A DNA stretch of 5,204 nt from a virus (taxonomy: Duplodnaviria; Heunggongvirae; Uroviricota; Caudoviricetes): the IMG/VR virus record IMGVR_UViG_2548876958_000011, one strand, 5' to 3'. Every line of letters begins with the position of its first letter. Position 1 is the first letter of the stretch. The notes under the pieces are model-generated. The model was not told where the DNA came from and ran no database searches. It saw nothing but the letters and a program-made list of their open reading frames with translations. Shown here in pieces: positions 201-5,204 of the stretch. A program made the position numbers and the translations under genes.

Positions 201-776
201 TTAAGGATTCATTAAGCAATGTCGCAACCACCAATAAATCCGCTTAAGAACATGAAAATTGATTACTGGTATAAAGCGCTTACAGTTGTTGGCGCTGCGT
301 TGTTTGTCTTTAATGGAACGTCTTTTTTTGACAGATATCCCGTTGTTCCATTGGGTTTTTTGTCCTCCGGCATCTTTTTTATTGGTTTGGGGGAGTGGAT
401 TAATCACCCTCTCAAAGTGAGATTTATTGGCCCTGGAGTTTGGACTCGTGGATATAATCGTTCTTCGTGCGCACTCGGTATCATCTTCGACATACTTGGT
501 TGTTTCCTGATTGTTACAGGAGTCGTCAAGTTCTTCTGATGTAAAACCGCAAATGGGGCACGTAACGGGAATTTTGAAAAGCGTTTCTCCGGGTTCCAGA
601 ACAAAATTTTCTGCGGTCTGATTTTGCTTCTCATATTTGTGCTCCGCGTCATTGTGAGAGCACATTCTTATTCTGAGTGCCTGTTTAAACTCACTGAAGC
701 TGAGAGCTTCTTCGCCTTCGGCAAGGCCTTCGAAGTATTCTTCGTAAGCCTTTTCCATGATTGTGTCGAAATCCAT
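201..776 (-). CDS. Acidic hypothetical protein, 191 aa as read to the first stop; C-terminal extent uncertain
   Basis: ATG at 776-774 preceded by AGGTGA with 5-nt spacing, 1 nt after the TGA of the upstream 51-aa ORF. N-terminal ~80 aa acidic and protein-like (MDFDTIMEKAYEEYFEGLAEGEE...). The distal ~110 aa is K/R/N/S-rich low complexity and is the codon-aligned antisense of the 219-539 membrane ORF, so it may be a shadow. Confidence 0.4.
   Translation of the reverse strand: MDFDTIMEKAYEEYFEGLAEGEEALSFSEFKQALRIRMCSHNDAEHKYEKQNQTAENFVLEPGETLFKIPVTCPICGFTSEELDDSCNNQETTKYVEDDTECARRTIISTSPNSRANKSHFERVINPLPQTNKKDAGGQKTQWNNGISVKKRRSIKDKQRSANNCKRFIPVINFHVLKRIYWWLRHCLMNP
219..539 (+). CDS. Small predicted membrane protein, 106 aa, about three hydrophobic segments; possible superinfection-exclusion-type function
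   Basis: ATG at 219 preceded by AAGGA (202-206); in-frame TAA at 213-215 prevents upstream extension. Hydrophobic stretches ALTVVGAALFVF, LGFLSSGIFFIGLGEWI and ALGIIFDILGCFLIVTGVV. Opposite orientation to neighbours, as for sieB in Rac-type prophages (synteny recall only). Fully overlapped antisense by the 201-776 ORF. Confidence 0.5.
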   Translation: MSQPPINPLKNMKIDYWYKALTVVGAALFVFNGTSFFDRYPVVPLGFLSSGIFFIGLGEWINHPLKVRFIGPGVWTRGYNRSSCALGIIFDILGCFLIVTGVVKFF

Positions 777-777
777 A

Positions 778-933
778 TCACTCACCTGAGTTTCTTTCCA
801 GCCAGCGACGGGCACCATTTTCGGTTTTAAACGTTTTGCTTTTGGTATACGTCATCGCGGTGAACGTGCCGTCCTGGTTGGGGAACACGCCACATACCAG
901 AGATTCGCTGTTGCCAAGATCGATAGTATCCAT
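778..933 (-). CDS. Small hypothetical protein, 51 aa, first gene of the leftward operon
   Basis: ATG at 933-931 preceded by AAGGGGAAATGAGG; stop TGA at 780-778. Protein MDTIDLGNSESLVCGVFPNQDGTFTAMTYTKSKTFKTENGARRWLERNSGE. Sits where the tiny ydaF/ydaG-type genes lie in Rac-type prophages (from memory, not verified). Confidence 0.5.
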   Translation of the reverse strand: MDTIDLGNSESLVCGVFPNQDGTFTAMTYTKSKTFKTENGARRWLERNSGE

Positions 934-1013
934 GCTGACCTCATTTCCCCTTAACGCCGGGGTAGCGGAACTGTTTGCTGAGAACACCGTGCGGTGTCTT
1001 GATGGAAAGTAAT

Positions 1014-1063
1014 TTAGAATAACCTAACATGATAGGCAAGTGTTTTTTGTTAGATTGGTCTAA
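1014..1063. promoter_or_regulatory. OL-like operator pair with candidate leftward promoter
   Basis: Perfect palindrome TTAGA-TTGG-TCTAA at 1050-1063, flanked G...C to give GTTAGA-N4-TCTAAC. Imperfect copy TTAGA-ATAA-CCTAAC at 1014-1028. On the minus strand a -35-like TTGCCT (1039-1034), 17-bp spacer and -10-like TAAATT (1016-1011) overlap the second site. Confidence 0.45.
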
Positions 1064-1101
1064 CAAAAAGAGTGGGCGCAACTAATCACTTGAAAAGAAT
1101 G

Positions 1102-1509
1102 TTATTTTATTGATTTATTTTTACGCGCTTTAAGCATTTCTTCGAAGAGTTTGTTGAAGTTTTCTACTCTTGCGCGCATTTCAGACAGCAAGGCTTCCTG
1201 CTCGGAAGATGGAAGAGCATCGAATAATTCGATCAATTCTTTGTGGTTGGGAGTTAGCTCTGTTTCCACATGAAGTTCTTGTGCAGGCACTGGTGCCTTG
1301 TCTTCGTCACCAAACATTAGCCATGTAGGTGAGCACTTCAGAGCATCCGCTAAAGCAAACAATCGTTTTCCGACTGGCTGGGTTTCGTCTCTTTCCCATT
1401 GTGAAATTGTGACGTGAGCAACTCCAGCGAGGCGCGCAGCTTCTCGTTGTGTTAAGCGTAATTCTTTTCGTCGCGCCAGAACTCGCTGGCCTAGGGTTCT
1501 TGTATCCAT
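1102..1509 (-). CDS. XRE-family HTH repressor (cI-like, DicA-like), 135 aa
   Basis: HTH segment LTQREAARLAGVAHVTISQWER near the N-terminus. Size and C-terminal region (CSPTWLMFGDEDK ... MRARVENFNKLFEEMLKAR) resemble DicA-type repressors as I recall them. Divergent from a Cro-like gene. No SD upstream of the ATG at 1509, suggesting a leaderless mRNA. Confidence 0.88.
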   Translation of the reverse strand: MDTRTLGQRVLARRKELRLTQREAARLAGVAHVTISQWERDETQPVGKRLFALADALKCSPTWLMFGDEDKAPVPAQELHVETELTPNHKELIELFDALPSSEQEALLSEMRARVENFNKLFEEMLKARKNKSIK

Positions 1510-1510
1510 A

Positions 1511-1574
1511 GTTAGGTAATTCTAATTTTTCTTGACTTAGATATCCCGCGCACAATAATGTTAGAAAAGTCTAA
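1511..1574. promoter_or_regulatory. OR-like region: rightward promoter with overlapping operators
   Basis: -35 TTGACT (1532-1537), 16-bp spacer, -10 AATAAT (1554-1559). Perfect palindrome TTAGA-AAAG-TCTAA at 1561-1574 over the predicted start site; imperfect GTTAGG-TAAT-TCTAAT at 1511-1526 upstream of -35; lone TTAGA half-site at 1537-1541. On the minus strand a TAGAAT -10-like hexamer (1525-1520) lies ~10 nt before the repressor ATG. Confidence 0.55.
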
Positions 1575-1589
1575 CAAGAGGGGGCTTTG

Positions 1590-1817
1590 ATGCTTAAAGT
1601 TGACGCAATTACTTTTTTTGGCAGCAAAACAAAGCTTGCCAATGCCGCAGGAGTGAGACTGGCAAGTGTTGCTGCTTGGGGGATACTGGTTCCTGAAGGT
1701 CGCGCGATGCGTCTACAGGAGGCATCTGGCGGGGAGCTTCTGTATGATCCCAAGGTTTATGACGAATATCGTAAGACGAAGCGGGCGGGGCGGTTGAACA
1801 ATGAAAATCACTCCTGA
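1590..1817 (+). CDS. Cro-like small DNA-binding protein (DicC/YdaS-like), 75 aa
   Basis: ATG at 1590 with AGAGGGGG 5 nt upstream; the track's start at 1587 is TTG one codon earlier. Segment FGSKTKLANAAGVRLASVAAW is HTH-like. Divergent from the repressor across the operator region. Resemblance to DicC is from memory. Confidence 0.75.
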   Translation: MLKVDAITFFGSKTKLANAAGVRLASVAAWGILVPEGRAMRLQEASGGELLYDPKVYDEYRKTKRAGRLNNENHS

Positions 1818-2322: not shown

Positions 2323-3268
2323 ACGCCCACTGGTTATAAACACACAGCTTGCGATGAAGATTGGCTTAAATGAAGCCATTGTGTTGCAGCAGTTGCATTA
2401 CTGGTTGAGAGATACCAATTCCGGCATGGAATGTGATGGTGTTCGCTGGATTTACAACACAACGGAACAATGGCTGGAACAGTTCCCATTCTGGTCAGAG
2501 TCAACGTTAAAGCGCGCGTTTGCAAGTCTGAAAACGCTGGGGCTTTTGCGTTGTGAAAAGCTCAATAAATCAAAGCGCGATATGACCAATTTCTACACGA
2601 TTAACTATGGGAGCGAGCTTTTAGATGATGGCAAATTGAGCGAATCCATCGGTTCAAAATGCGCCGCTCCATCAGGTCAAAATGACACGATGGAAGAGGT
2701 CAAAATGAAACGCTCCATTGGTTCAAAACGACCCAATGTCATCGGGTCAAAATGGCCCGATGATCCTACAGAGAATACAACAGAGATTACTACAGAGAAT
2801 AAAAACACTTTTCGTCCGGAAGCTTCGCAACCGGACCCGCAGACGGCTGAACAGGATTTTTTAATCCGGCACCCTGGCGCAGTTGTGTTTAGTGCGAAAA
2901 AACGCCAGTGGGATAGCCAGGAGGATCTGGCGTGTGCGCAGTGGATATGGGGGCGGATCGTGGGTCTCTACGAACAGGCCGCCAGTGATGATGGCGAGAT
3001 CATGCGACCAAAAGAGCCTAACTGGACTGTCTGGGCCAATGATGTGCGCACAATGCGGATGCTGGATGGCAGAAGCCACAGACAAATTTGTGAAATGTTT
3101 GGTCGGGTACAGCGGGATCCATTCTGGGTAAAAAACATCATGAGCCCGTCAAAGCTCCGCGAAAAATGGGACGAACTGGTCATCCGCCTGGGGCGTTCAC
3201 CTGTACAGCGTTGTGTTAATCATATTTCTGAACCGGATACAGAAATTCCGCCTGGTTTCAGAGGATAA
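2303..3268 (+). CDS. Phage replication initiation / replisome-organiser protein (O-like), 321 aa from ATG 2303
   Basis: N-terminal wHTH-like segment (LVINTQLAMKIGLNEAIVLQQLHYWL) typical of phage initiator N-domains. Iteron array and A/T-rich block lie inside the gene, as for ori-lambda inside O. The track's start at 2249 is TTG; ATG 2303 is preferred and overlaps the upstream stop by 20 nt. Confidence 0.8.
   Translation: MSLLFAERPLVINTQLAMKIGLNEAIVLQQLHYWLRDTNSGMECDGVRWIYNTTEQWLEQFPFWSESTLKRAFASLKTLGLLRCEKLNKSKRDMTNFYTINYGSELLDDGKLSESIGSKCAAPSGQNDTMEEVKMKRSIGSKRPNVIGSKWPDDPTENTTEITTENKNTFRPEASQPDPQTAEQDFLIRHPGAVVFSAKKRQWDSQEDLACAQWIWGRIVGLYEQAASDDGEIMRPKEPNWTVWANDVRTMRMLDGRSHRQICEMFGRVQRDPFWVKNIMSPSKLREKWDELVIRLGRSPVQRCVNHISEPDTEIPPGFRG
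2646..2755 (+). repeat. Replication-origin iterons, five copies of CCATYGGKTCAAAAYG-like repeat
   Basis: TCAAAA cores begin at 2654, 2677, 2700, 2723 and 2747, spaced 23/23/23/24 bp (about two helical turns). Copies fall in different reading frames, so conservation is at the DNA level. Confidence 0.7.
2765..2810 (+). other. A/T-rich block next to the iterons, candidate DNA-unwinding element
   Basis: Three tandem ACAGAGA(A/T)TAC-like units (2769-2802) followed by AAAAACACTTTT, directly downstream of the iterons, mirroring the ori-lambda layout. Confidence 0.5.
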
Positions 3269-3928: not shown

Positions 3929-5176
3929 TTAAGTCTGAGCCTCACTCTCTTGGCCATAAGTGGCTTGCCAGTATCTCGCCGTAGGGTTCATTAGAATGTG
4001 CAATACAAGCCACCATGCAAAAATGCAGGGAGGTTGATTGTAGTAACCGGCAGGCACATATCCGTGAGCTAGTTGATTTCGTAAATCACCATAGATTTTA
4101 TCTACCAGTAAGGCCTGAAGATTGCCAATTATGTCTACGCCGAAAGCTTCAATAATCAGTGGATTATCTAGTAATCCCTTGAGTCCATTTCGCTCTTGCG
4201 AACCGTCCCCGTGAAGCTGCGATGGTTCCTCACCTTTAATTTTAGCCACATATCTCAGACTATTTTCGATCTGGGGAATCAACACGTGGCATGCCGTCAT
4301 AAAATCTCCATTGAAACCGCAAACCATACCCTTGATGAAAAACTCTTCATGCCCAAACGGGATGAAGGGATGATTGATGAACATATCGCGAAAAAACGCC
4401 TCCGAGATTGGATATTTCATTGTGATCTCATCTGTAGCAGGAATAATTTGCCCAGCTACTGCCAACTCATGGTCGATACGCATTCTCGTCATCATTATGG
4501 GCCAAATAACTGCCCCATTTGCATCATCAATCCCCAATCCTGCGGGTATGCGAGCAAGTGTCATTCCCTCATGATCAATATGTGTTGATCCAAACATCCA
4601 AGCTATGCTGTTGGCCTTTTGTTCTATTGCTTGAGCCTTAAGTCTCTCAATGCTGGTTGGCCGACAGACCAGCATCGCAAGTCTGAAAACCATATCAAAC
4701 AAATCTCTTCCGACTACCCGACTCTTGGCTTGATGGACAATCTCACTAATATCTTGAGGGGGAGACTGAAGGATAGACATCTGGTGACGGGATTCGATTT
4801 GGTAATCACGCATTTCTTCATACAGCGCAAGACGTTCTATTCGGGTTCCTGGAATATTAGCCAGTGCTTCAATAGCATTCTGCATGCAGGCTGCCGAAAT
4901 CATACCGCCATCTTGGAATTTTGACTCTTCCAGATGTGTATCGGCAAGAAGCCGCCAGAATTCAAACTGTGTATCTCTGTCACAGCACCTATTCGCAATC
5001 GGGATTGCGGTTTTACAGGCATCGACGGCAAATGAAAATAATTTTTGAGCCAGATAGTTTTTTGTCAGAAACAGGAGTTCCTGGGCAATAAAAGATGGCT
5101 CACTCACTTTACAGTCGATATCGAGTTGCAGGAGTCGCAGCGGATAAGGTGGATTTGCCCCTATATTTCCAGACAC
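3929..5176 (-). CDS. Hypothetical 415-aa protein with C-terminal HEPN-like R-x4-H-x-Y signature; candidate abortive-infection / defence protein
   Basis: Long ORF convergent with the phage early operon. Motif DLRNQLAHGY at residues 364-373 (nt 4058-4081). Duplicated IDHE motifs (HIDHEGM, RIDHELA) mid-protein. GTG start at 5176 with weak SD, so the N-terminus is uncertain. Stop TAA 3931-3929. Confidence 0.7.
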   Translation of the reverse strand: MSGNIGANPPYPLRLLQLDIDCKVSEPSFIAQELLFLTKNYLAQKLFSFAVDACKTAIPIANRCCDRDTQFEFWRLLADTHLEESKFQDGGMISAACMQNAIEALANIPGTRIERLALYEEMRDYQIESRHQMSILQSPPQDISEIVHQAKSRVVGRDLFDMVFRLAMLVCRPTSIERLKAQAIEQKANSIAWMFGSTHIDHEGMTLARIPAGLGIDDANGAVIWPIMMTRMRIDHELAVAGQIIPATDEITMKYPISEAFFRDMFINHPFIPFGHEEFFIKGMVCGFNGDFMTACHVLIPQIENSLRYVAKIKGEEPSQLHGDGSQERNGLKGLLDNPLIIEAFGVDIIGNLQALLVDKIYGDLRNQLAHGYVPAGYYNQPPCIFAWWLVLHILMNPTARYWQATYGQESEAQT

Positions 5177-5204
5177 CTGTTATCACTTAACCCATTACTG
5201 GCTT

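Follow-up and report, generated by a model that had tools for sequence, protein, structure and literature searches.

Genes of the locus and their relation to dicA-dicC

The window, by which we mean the whole stretch of 5,204 nucleotides that was analysed, carries on its minus strand a gene (1102..1509) for a repressor of 135 aa, a DicA homolog with an N-terminal HTH domain (Pfam HTH_3, E 1.5e-14). The protein is 57% identical to K-12 DicA across 132 of its 135 aa (E 4e-55), its residues 1-71 match the N-terminal domain of P22 C2 (PDB 1adr and 2r1j; E 1e-18), and no Pfam match to the S24 peptidase domain was found in it. Across an intergenic region of 80 bp (1510-1589), a divergent Cro-like gene on the plus strand (1590..1817) encodes a DicC homolog of 75 aa, which matches Pfam P22_Cro (E 2.6e-11) and is 84% identical to K-12 DicC; an alternative TTG start is present at 1587, and an SD sequence, GAGGGGG, at 1578-1584. 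On the other side of the repressor gene lies a ydfA homolog (minus strand, 778..933; Pfam DUF1391, E 8.8e-28), the first gene of the leftward operon, and homologs of both ydfA and ydfB are found in the window downstream of the leftward promoter. The window has a near end-to-end match in ATCC 25922, in DEC9B and in over 100 further complete genomes; the annotation of the DEC9B copy of the prophage gives ydfA, then ydfB, then dicB and ydfD, and also includes a rem gene.

Judged from sequence, the region is homologous to the dicA-dicC immunity locus of the Qin prophage. As in Qin (Kim) of K-12, the gene order is ydfB, ydfA, repressor and divergent cro-like gene, and the repressor has 135 aa and lacks an S24 domain, whereas the rightward genes (ydaT-like, replication-like and DUF977), which are deleted or truncated in K-12 Qin, are intact here. 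An earlier account of the dicA-dicC locus presents it as a switch of the lambda kind, whose operators lie partly between the dicA and dicC genes and partly between dicA and dicBp, and reports that DicA has no cleavage site and is antagonised by Rem (PMC10448788). In K-12, DicA represses dicC and activates dicA (PMC3441716), while DicC ChIP-seq peaks flank dicA on either side and induction of DicC lowers dicA 48- to 84-fold (PMC11430063). The window is a new allele of this known system, the design of which has already been described for E. coli K-12 dicA-dicC.

Palindromes and predicted promoters flanking the repressor gene

Four sites of the form GTTAGA-N4-TCTAAC were found, at 1013-1028, 1049-1064, 1511-1526 and 1560-1575. 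Two of these are perfect, GTTAGATTGGTCTAAC at 1049-1064 and GTTAGAAAAGTCTAAC at 1560-1575, and two are imperfect, TTTAGAATAACCTAAC at 1013-1028 and GTTAGGTAATTCTAAT at 1511-1526, each of the latter with mismatches at 2 of the 12 specified bases. A preliminary description had claimed perfect palindromes, each paired with an imperfect copy, and our analysis confirmed both their positions and their sequences. With up to two mismatches allowed, these four sites compare with 0.13 expected, and none of 200 dinucleotide shuffles reached four; any two perfect 6-N4-6 palindromes with a common arm occurred in 3 of 2000 shuffles. The same description had proposed a search across the prophage; when 25 kb of the DEC9B prophage, which is nearly identical, were searched, the same four sites were the only matches apart from one, which lies inside an IS2 element and is probably a chance hit. 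The symmetry of both perfect sites in fact reaches 7-N4-7, with the arms TGTTAGA/TCTAACA in common, and at the left site the arms lengthen to 11 bp (1044-1069). Centre-to-centre spacing is 36 bp in the left pair and 49 bp in the right pair; since neither distance corresponds to complete helical turns, cooperative binding of a simple side-by-side kind is not evident.

The half-site TGTTAG...CTAACA is that of the genetically validated K-12 operator Oc, TTGTTAGTCATAACTAACAA. Genetic evidence and an EMSA with crude extract showed that DicA binds Oc (TTGTTAG-N6-CTAACAA), and changes of single bases in this operator abolish the binding (PMC3441716). The TGTTAG-N6-CTAACA half-site arrangement is thus shared with Qin of K-12, but the inner base of the half-site is A here (GTTAGA) and T in K-12 (GTTAGT).

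In the right-hand cluster, the perfect predicted operator TGTTAGAAAAGTCTAACA (1559..1576; arms TGTTAGA and TCTAACA around AAAG) is the equivalent of K-12 Oc, with which it shares both the half-site and the position relative to the repressor ATG (-67 to -50). It spans approximately -6 to +10 of a predicted rightward promoter of the dicCp/PR type (plus strand, 1532..1559), which consists of TTGACT (1532-1537), a 16-nt spacer and AATAAT (1554-1559), with a predicted start at ~1566 that is covered by the 1560-1575 core. This promoter was the sole promoter-like match of a consensus scan in 700-1900 (10 of 12 positions) and is homologous to the K-12 dicC promoter, the start of which was mapped by 5' RACE (PMC3441716). 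The right-hand imperfect candidate operator, GTTAGGTAATTCTAAT (1511..1526), is the equivalent of K-12 Oa and lies at -14 to +2 of the predicted repressor promoter. Accordingly, the earlier proposal that the right-hand pair overlaps the rightward promoter holds for the perfect site and fails for its imperfect partner, which covers the -10 element and start of the repressor promoter. A possible degenerate middle site, weak and equivalent to K-12 Om, may be present at 1536..1551, 24.5 bp from each of the other two right-hand sites; it has a single half-site, TTAGA (1537-1541), which overlaps the rightward -35, and 6 mismatches at 14 positions. The overall arrangement, a perfect or near-perfect site over the cro-side promoter start and an imperfect site abutting the repressor ATG, is that of Qin in K-12, with the difference that the middle site is reduced to one half-site here.

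The predicted repressor promoter (dicAp/PRM-like; minus strand, 1512..1547) has a -10 TAGAAT (1524-1519), nearer to consensus than the K-12 TAGCAT, and a poor -35 GGGATA (1547-1542). It fell below the threshold of the consensus scan and, since that scan recovered only the rightward promoter, was placed by homology and conserved spacing. Its predicted start, an A at 1512, would give an mRNA beginning 5'-ACU-AUG. No purine-rich SD was found before the repressor ATG (1509-1507, minus strand), which lies 9 nt downstream of TAGAAT, in agreement with the earlier observation of an SD-less ATG about 10 nt past this hexamer, and a -10-like hexamer stands 6-9 nt before the ATG in 13 of 13 DicA-type loci. 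Previous studies mapped a 3-nt leader for K-12 dicA mRNA, among the few mapped leaderless E. coli mRNAs (PMC4681348, Table S3), and list dicA among known leaderless genes (PMC8794815). Because the start context CTAACTATG is identical in the window and in K-12 dicA, the mapped K-12 leader supports, by homology, the suggestion that the repressor mRNA of the window may be leaderless. The almost leaderless repressor mRNA is part of the earlier description of dicA-dicC, and leaderless repressor mRNAs form a class in mobile elements that includes lambda cI, dicA, racR and ymfK.

The left-hand pair lies past the 3' end of the repressor gene at a candidate leftward promoter, as had been proposed, with 1013-1028 in the promoter core and 1049-1064 upstream of the -35. 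The distal, perfect predicted operator comprises the core GTTAGATTGGTCTAAC within its 11-bp arms (1044..1069), at approximately -45 to -60 of this promoter, and the proximal, imperfect candidate, TTTAGAATAACCTAAC (1013..1028), falls in the promoter spacer and -10. The leftward promoter (dicBp/PL-like; minus strand, 1003..1039) consists of TTGCCT (1039-1034), a 17-nt spacer and TAAATT (1016-1011), with a predicted start at ~1003-1004. It scored 8 of 12 in the consensus scan, under the threshold, and we therefore infer it from homology to K-12 dicBp; the layout TTGnCn-17-TAAnnT followed by CCATCAA is common to nearly all loci that were compared.

Two sites are likewise found at the leftward promoter of Qin in K-12, where the counterpart of 1013-1028 is TGTTAGTCATGGCTAATC, between TTGACC and TAATCT, and the counterpart of the distal site is GTTAGCTATAGCATAC, a weak palindrome upstream of the -35. 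Thus, the layout is kept, but the strongest left site is distal here and in the promoter core in K-12. The location of the DicA sites at dicBp was called unknown by the authors of Reg-Seq in 2020 (PMC7567609). Our comparative analysis would place one of these K-12 sites, TGTTAGTCATGGCTAATC, inside the promoter core and the other, GTTAGCTATAGCATAC, on the upstream side of the -35.

The leader of the leftward operon was also examined for a conserved RNA element of the nut type; RNAalifold gave essentially no consensus structure (-1.96 kcal/mol) and the single-sequence fold was no better than shuffles (z -0.83). Against Rfam, with E values up to 1 accepted, the complete window had no match to a known RNA family, at the palindromes or elsewhere.

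Comparison of DicA-type loci and competing explanations

The comparison set comprised 13 DicA-type loci from several Enterobacterales genera, three of them from metagenome bins labelled otherwise; loci with degraded repressor genes (L021-L023) and near-duplicates of the window or of K-12 (L004, L008 and L009) were left out of the comparative tables. In an ungapped alignment anchored on the repressor ATG, the palindromes stand at fixed offsets in the 13 loci, and the site sequences change together with immunity type while their distances to the repressor gene are constant. When the Oc pattern of each locus was sought past its own repressor stop, it recurred in most loci at 35-41 nt (the distal left position) and at 70-78 nt (the proximal left position), and in 10 of 13 loci the recurrence was at a mismatch level unreached in 300 background segments. 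Mean mismatches between the own Oc and the post-stop region were 2.8 on the diagonal and 5.0 off it, and the Oa and Om positions likewise co-vary with the Oc of their own locus, although the permutation tests of both kinds of co-variation ignore the kinship of the loci. The operator layout of K-12 DicA/DicC thus extends across Enterobacterales, conserved in position and co-varying in sequence.

Altogether, these results indicate that the window very probably contains the immunity region of a Qin-like lambdoid E. coli prophage, in which a DicA-type repressor and a DicC-type Cro would use the four palindromes as the operators of a bistable switch. The proposed OR/OL-like layout, with only the repressor gene between the two clusters, is supported by homology to dicA-dicC and by the literature on that locus. 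The preliminary observation is therefore correct but ordinary. It brings in no new principle, and the main value of the analysis lies in annotation, in that positions are fixed for the predicted operators and the three promoters of an immunity allele that is common among E. coli prophages.

The best-surviving alternative, which we nevertheless consider unlikely, is that only the two perfect palindromes are operators, and that the imperfect copies are simply the -10 regions of the repressor and leftward promoters, bound specifically by no protein, with a likeness to the operator that comes from their AT-rich hexamers containing TA. A -10-like hexamer does occur in both imperfect sites, which have two mismatches each: TAGAAT (1524-1519) in one and TAAATT (1016-1011) in the other. 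Moreover, K-12 Oa and Om, when each was cloned alone, were not bound by DicA in vivo (PMC3441716, data not shown there). The imperfect copies of the window may therefore be sites for Cro only, sites that depend on cooperativity, or mainly promoter elements. However, chance would give 0.13 sites per window at up to two mismatches, far fewer than the two additional ones seen here, each of which lies no more than 50 bp from a perfect site. The imperfect positions also co-vary with the Oc type of their own locus from one immunity group to another, a behaviour not expected of a generic -10 element. Furthermore, the site in the dicBp promoter core is the better of the two left-hand sites in K-12, and the strong repression of dicA by DicC (PMC11430063) requires a site at the dicA promoter.

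It is highly improbable that the palindromes act as RNA hairpins and not as DNA bound by protein, 1044-1069 for example by terminating the repressor mRNA or stabilising its 3' end. Transcribed from the minus strand, 1030-1080 can form an 11-bp hairpin (-10.2 kcal/mol, z -4.6), located 32 nt past the repressor stop, where some relatives (L007 and L017) have a G+C-rich, terminator-like hairpin. In contrast, the stem of the left hairpin is A/U-rich, no U tract follows either palindrome, a terminator scan was empty at both, and the right palindrome is not unusually stable (z -0.97). The reading as a terminator was rejected, since neither the scan nor the RNA folds favour it and unusual stability is confined to the left palindrome. 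The equivalent left distal site of K-12, GTTAGCTATAGCATAC, is only weakly palindromic and yet the layout is kept, and the same 7-bp arms recur at both perfect sites and match the site at which single base changes abolish DicA binding. Finally, although the loose limit of three mismatches is unimpressive (1.54 sites are expected where four are observed, and 13 of 200 shuffles have at least four), the idea that the repeats arose by chance in AT-rich intergenic DNA is refuted by the shuffles at two mismatches, by those for perfect pairs with shared arms, and by the positions kept in 13 loci.

Proposed switch and its relation to other phages

The functional roles that we propose for the operators and promoters of the window are transferred, by homology, from the 57% identical K-12 DicA. 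In the repressed state, repressor dimers on 1559-1576 would block RNA polymerase at the rightward promoter, which would drive the cro-like, ydaT-like and replication genes. On the left, the repressor would also occupy the strong distal site (1044-1069) as well as the weak site inside the promoter core (1013-1028), and would thereby keep the operon from ydfA to dicB silent. The repressor promoter combines a good -10 with a poor -35. Since a mere 54 bp separate its predicted start at 1512 from that of the divergent rightward promoter, polymerases at the two promoters are expected to be mutually exclusive, and repressor bound to the perfect right site would consequently favour its own synthesis. 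Autoactivation was shown for K-12 DicA; the mechanism by promoter competition is our inference. With a leader of ~3 nt and no SD, the repressor mRNA would be translated as a leaderless message. Occupation of the weak site at 1511-1526 by the Cro-like protein, or by excess repressor, would then stop repressor synthesis and flip the switch, and because the repressor has no S24 cleavage domain, induction is expected to proceed through an antirepressor.

The strongest sites, 1559-1576 and 1044-1069, are 511 bp apart, with the repressor gene alone between them. If repressor oligomers held the two sites together, the entire gene could be looped out in the manner of the lambda OL-OR loop on a smaller scale, a speculative possibility to which we attach little weight. 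Such a loop would bring the weak sites at 1013-1028 and 1511-1526 under cooperative control and would explain why the weak sites of K-12 do not bind DicA when alone. If this reading is true, the DicA family would also possess a set of operator specificities, no fewer than five or six, that are legible in the sequence.

The operators of P22 are also 18-bp palindromes with a 4-bp central spacer that is not contacted by C2. Resemblance to P22 immC is seen in the N-terminal domain of the repressor, which is homologous to that of C2, and in the assignment of the Cro-like protein to P22_Cro. However, C2 has 216 aa and a RecA-sensitive C-terminal domain, whereas the repressor here has an unrelated, short C-terminal domain, and the half-site is GTTAG here but TTAAG in P22.

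As in lambda, with OR/OL and cI transcribed from PRM, repressor and cro are divergent and operators, predicted ones in the window, lie on both sides of the repressor gene; a repressor mRNA with essentially no leader and, by analogy with K-12, autoregulation may be further common features. The switch of the window would work like lambda OR/OL, yet its repressor, with 135 aa and no Pfam match to peptidase S24, stands outside the CI/S24 repressor family. The operators have no sequence homology to those of lambda, and S24 autocleavage is lacking. Here, unlike in lambda, the repressor gene is alone between the operator clusters, and in place of three good sites a cluster contains two clear ones and, at most, a third that is degenerate. 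The divergent repressor and cro starts of lambda are ~82 bp apart, compared with ~54 bp in the window.

By description, the window also resembles the GfoR/GfhR systems of Salmonella Gifsy prophages, with a short, non-cleavable repressor and with rem in the DEC9B copy. GfoR and GfhR are short, non-cleavable repressors that are relieved by an antirepressor (PMC10448788).

Operator-like sites around a DicA-type repressor gene

The window was found to be nearly identical to a prophage region of E. coli DEC9B, ATCC 25922 and many more strains (99.9% match over 1-5151/5154), and at least 80% of it was covered in 139 genomes. The DEC9B copy (NZ_CP074760.1) belongs to a lambdoid prophage. There the repressor gene is flanked by int, xis, exo, ydfD, dicB, ydfB and ydfA to one side and by cro-like, ydaT-like, replication-like and DUF977 genes to the other, with hokD, rem, an antiterminator gene and lysis genes further on. 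The repressor gene (1102-1509, minus strand) encodes 135 aa, with HTH_3 as the sole domain found by Pfam; the protein is 57% identical to E. coli K-12 DicA over its full length, and residues 1-71 match the P22 C2 N-terminal domain (PDB 1adr, 2r1j; E ~1e-18). The divergent Cro-like gene (1590-1817, plus strand) belongs to the P22_Cro family and is 84% identical to K-12 DicC, and the gene at 778-933 (minus strand) is homologous to ydfA (DUF1391). Judged by these gene identities, the locus is an allele of the Qin prophage dicA-dicC-dicBp immunity region with a variant sequence; related sequences in phage records carry dicA/dicC annotation.

The preliminary description had located four operator-like sites of the pattern GTTAGA-N4-TCTAAC flanking the repressor gene, and all four were recovered: a left and a right perfect site at 1049-1064 (GTTAGATTGGTCTAAC) and 1560-1575 (GTTAGAAAAGTCTAAC), and a left and a right imperfect site, with two mismatches each, at 1013-1028 (TTTAGAATAACCTAAC) and 1511-1526 (GTTAGGTAATTCTAAT). 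Both perfect sites are 7-N4-7 palindromes with identical arms, which at the left site lengthen to 11 bp (1044-1069). With up to two mismatches, the chance expectation for the window is 0.13 sites and four were reached in 0 of 200 shuffles, and any two perfect 6-N4-6 palindromes with a common arm occurred in 3 of 2000 shuffles. At a limit of three mismatches the site statistic is weak, and the case therefore rests on site quality and placement. A search across 25 kb of the DEC9B prophage returned the same four sites plus one inside IS2, which is probably a chance match.

Putative promoters at the sites and the predicted repressor start

A consensus scan of the region gave a single match, the rightward (dicCp- or PR-like) promoter on the plus strand (TTGACT 1532-1537, 16-nt spacer, AATAAT 1554-1559). 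If its start lies near 1566, the right perfect site covers about -6 to +10. The right-hand pair had been assigned to this promoter; that holds for the perfect site, whereas the imperfect site covers the -10 and predicted start of the repressor (dicAp- or PRM-like) promoter. The latter, on the minus strand, has a -10-like TAGAAT (1524-1519) and, as its best -35 candidate, a poor GGGATA (1547-1542). The repressor strand reads ATTAGAATTACCTAACTATG just before the ATG, which follows TAGAAT by 9 nt and has no SD in its upstream sequence, in agreement with the earlier reading of an ATG without SD near this element. Past the repressor stop, the sequence on the minus strand is TTTTTGTTAGACCAATCTAACAAAAA-ACAC-TTGCCT-ATCATGTTAGGTTATTC-TAAATT-ACTTTCCATCAA, where homology with K-12, which has the same layout (TTGACC-GATATGTTAGTCATGGC-TAATCT), predicts a leftward (dicBp- or PL-like) promoter (TTGCCT 1039-1034, 17-nt spacer, TAAATT 1016-1011). 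This promoter was absent from the scan list because only 8/12 consensus positions match. As had been suggested for the left pair, both members lie at this promoter past the repressor 3' end: the perfect site is upstream of the -35, and the imperfect site falls within the spacer and -10.

The same design is known for the K-12 dicA locus, and the preliminary description was essentially right in its overall reading. For K-12, the literature already reports operators to either side of dicA, a leaderless mRNA for dicA and a bistable switch; the present analysis adds only the allele and the comparative case for a family-wide layout with operators that co-vary with immunity type. Yun et al. described a 20-nt inverted repeat, Oc (TTGTTAGTCATAACTAACAA), in the K-12 dicA-dicC intergenic region. 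Oc overlaps the dicC promoter -10, and the start of this promoter was mapped by 5' RACE. High-copy cloning of the region gave single base changes in Oc, one of which eliminated repression by DicA when the operator was assayed in vivo, and a promoter fragment was shifted by crude DicA extract (PMC3441716). Alignment placed Oc at 3158-3177 of the K-12 locus, and K-12 Oa (GTTAGCTAATGCTAAA) adjoins the dicA ATG just as 1511-1526 adjoins the window repressor ATG. Ragunathan and Vanderpool placed operators in two intervals, dicA-dicC and dicA-dicBp, and reported that DicA, which has no cleavage site, represses dicBp, that the antirepressor Rem relieves repression and that bistability depends on DicC (PMC10448788). 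DicC bound either side of dicA in ChIP-seq, with a palindromic motif TT(A/C/T)G...C(G/A/T)AA, and its induction lowered dicA 48- to 84-fold (PMC11430063). The location of DicA binding at dicB was stated to be unknown in Reg-Seq (PMC7567609). By the comparative approach described below, putative K-12 dicBp operators can be placed in the dicA-ydfA gap (2613-2665 of the K-12 locus): TGTTAGTCATGGCTAATC in the stretch separating TTGACC from TAATCT, and GTTAGCTATAGCATAC ahead of the -35.

Romero et al. listed dicA, racR and ymfK as three prophage regulators among leaderless mRNAs; their supplementary table gives the dicA TSS as 1645954 and the gene start as 1645957, a 3-nt leader, which was checked by RLM-RT-PCR (PMC4681348). 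A 0-based tabulation of the gene start would make the leader 4 nt, and A stands at both candidate positions. The known leaderless genes listed in a ribosome-profiling study also include dicA (PMC8794815). K-12 reads TAGCAT-TAGCTA-ACT-ATG and the window TAGAAT-TACCTA-ACT-ATG, with a -10 nearer consensus. Because the start context CTAACTATG is identical in the two and the tabulated K-12 start lies at the canonical distance, 7 nt past the hexamer, we predict that the window repressor starts at A1512 (minus strand), giving an mRNA 5' end of ACU-AUG.

The window sequence directly shows the sites, that they are symmetrical and that they overlap promoter elements. In K-12, DicA has been shown to bind Oc and to repress dicC, and dicA transcription depends on DicA, which was required for dicA promoter activity (PMC3441716). 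By analogy, repressor at 1559-1576, the Oc equivalent, would block the rightward promoter, and repressor at 1044-1069 and 1013-1028 would block the leftward promoter, while 1511-1526 may be a shut-off site for repressor synthesis, acting mainly via the Cro-like protein. Only ~54 bp separate the divergent starts, and the two elements of the repressor promoter (-10 at 1519-1524, -35 at 1542-1547) enclose the rightward -35 (1532-1537); because of this spacing and interleaving, RNA polymerases at the two promoters would be expected to compete. At least part of any repressor 'activation' of its own promoter may thus be relief of competition rather than a lambda-style contact; the center of the right perfect site is at about -55.5 from the repressor start, unlike the position of lambda OR2 relative to PRM. 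The feature would work like lambda OR/OL. The repressor falls outside the CI/S24 family because it has no S24 domain, and every sequence-level property that could be tested places the feature in the DicA/DicC family, which has a P22 C2-like DNA-binding domain.

Comparison across DicA-type loci

When one genome per species was scanned, DicA relatives were found to be encoded at 21 loci, in Escherichia, Citrobacter, Enterobacter, Symbiopectobacterium, Rahnella, Buttiauxella, Superficieibacter and others. Three of the contigs (L008, L012, L013), from metagenome bins labelled Collinsella, Bacillota and Veillonella parvula, are E. coli-type dicA contigs with ydfA leaders identical to E. coli, and their labels probably reflect binning error rather than real hosts. 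We compared 13 non-redundant intact loci, including the window and K-12, in an ungapped alignment anchored solely on the repressor ATG. All 13 share a ribosome-binding site for Cro, a palindrome spanning about -67 to -50 from the repressor ATG, a rightward -35 that reads GTCAA on the repressor strand, a weaker second site at -17 to -2, and a -10-like hexamer (TAGAAT, TAGCAT, TAAGAT or TATATT) 6-9 nt ahead of the ATG. The palindrome sequence varies by locus group: TGTTAG...CTAACA in the window, K-12 and Citrobacter L005 (less perfect in L011 and L016), CCTTAGG...CCTAAG in L007, TTGAG...CTCAA in L012 and L019, GTTGAG...TTAAC in L010 and L015, and ATAACT...AGTTAT in L014. Changes in the recognition-helix region (e.g., AHVTISQWE, SHATISLWE, SSVSVFKWE) run roughly parallel to this grouping.

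When each locus was scanned with its own Oc pattern, the pattern recurred 35-41 nt and 70-78 nt past the repressor stop, and in 10/13 loci the best downstream match beat all 300 background segments from the same locus. Oc patterns matched their own downstream region with a mean of 2.8/14 mismatches, vs 5.0/14 for other loci, and the Oa and Om positions matched their own Oc better than foreign Oc, with 0/20,000 permutations as good; the permutation figures for both comparisons ignore the relatedness of the loci and are not to be read as probabilities. Shared descent of a single site cannot give this result, since different positions within a locus are compared. This is good sequence evidence that Oc, Oa, Om and the downstream positions are all read by the same locus-specific proteins. 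At the window equivalent of Om (1536-1551), a single half-site is left, TTAGA (1537-1541), which overlaps the rightward -35.

Chance origin of the repeats was ruled out by the shuffle statistics and the conserved positions across loci. That the palindromes are instead terminator or RNA hairpins is unlikely: neither is followed by a U tract, a terminator scan had no site there, the stems are A/U-rich, the fold is unusually good at the left palindrome only, and K-12 retains the layout although its palindrome at the left position is poor. The sole alternative with real weight, which we nevertheless consider improbable, is that the imperfect copies are promoter elements rather than protein-binding sites. 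It is favored by the report that the sequence-predicted K-12 Om and Oa, assayed in isolation, gave no DicA binding (data not shown there; PMC3441716), but the imperfect copies exceed chance, are fixed in position and co-vary with Oc. If they are operators, the imperfect sites may well be Cro-preferred or cooperativity-dependent.

The leftward leader and other features of the window

The leader of the leftward operon (940-1003, minus strand), from the predicted start to the ydfA ATG at 933, reads CATCAAGACACCGCACGGTGTTCTCAGCAAACAGTTCCGCTACCCCGGCGTTAAGGGGAAATGAGG and is recognizable in very divergent DicA-type loci. It contains hairpin 1 (ACACC-GCAC-GGTGT, 984-997), a linear box (GTTCCGCT) and hairpin 2 (946-961), in which, by eye, the stem varies (CCCC/GGGG, CCCTG/CAGGG, GCC/GGC, GCCT/AGGC) and the loop GCGNTAA is constant. 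Another leader type (L011, L016-L018, L020) has ACAGTTCTGAC and a GAAAGA-loop hairpin that recalls lambda boxB. The leader may act as an RNA element, nut-like or of another kind; the RNAalifold consensus was only -1.96 kcal/mol, on a poor alignment, the single-sequence fold gave no support (z -0.83), and an Rfam scan found no family match for the leader and no DicF-like RNA in the window.

Within the leftward operon region, on the strand opposite to ydfA and ydfB, an ORF of 106 aa (219-539, plus strand) has hydrophobic stretches and no Pfam match; DEC9B has no annotated feature between ydfB and dicB, where this ORF falls (the observation covers 1-200 as well).

The segment 900-1900 matched four places in the DEC9B chromosome, indicating several DicA-type immunity regions within one genome. 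Since alleles have the TGTTAG...CTAACA core in common, repressors of co-resident prophages could plausibly cross-talk.

The final 50 bases (5155-5204) begin TGGATTTGCCCCTATATTTCCAGACACCTGTTATCACTTAACCC and resemble an IS2 terminal inverted repeat. The DUF4209 gene (3929-5176, minus strand) is intact at 595 aa in DEC9B, where IS2 lies just past the gene. Since the last 50 bases are IS2-like and related genomes match only up to 5151-5154, IS2 appears to interrupt the DUF4209 gene in the source of the window.
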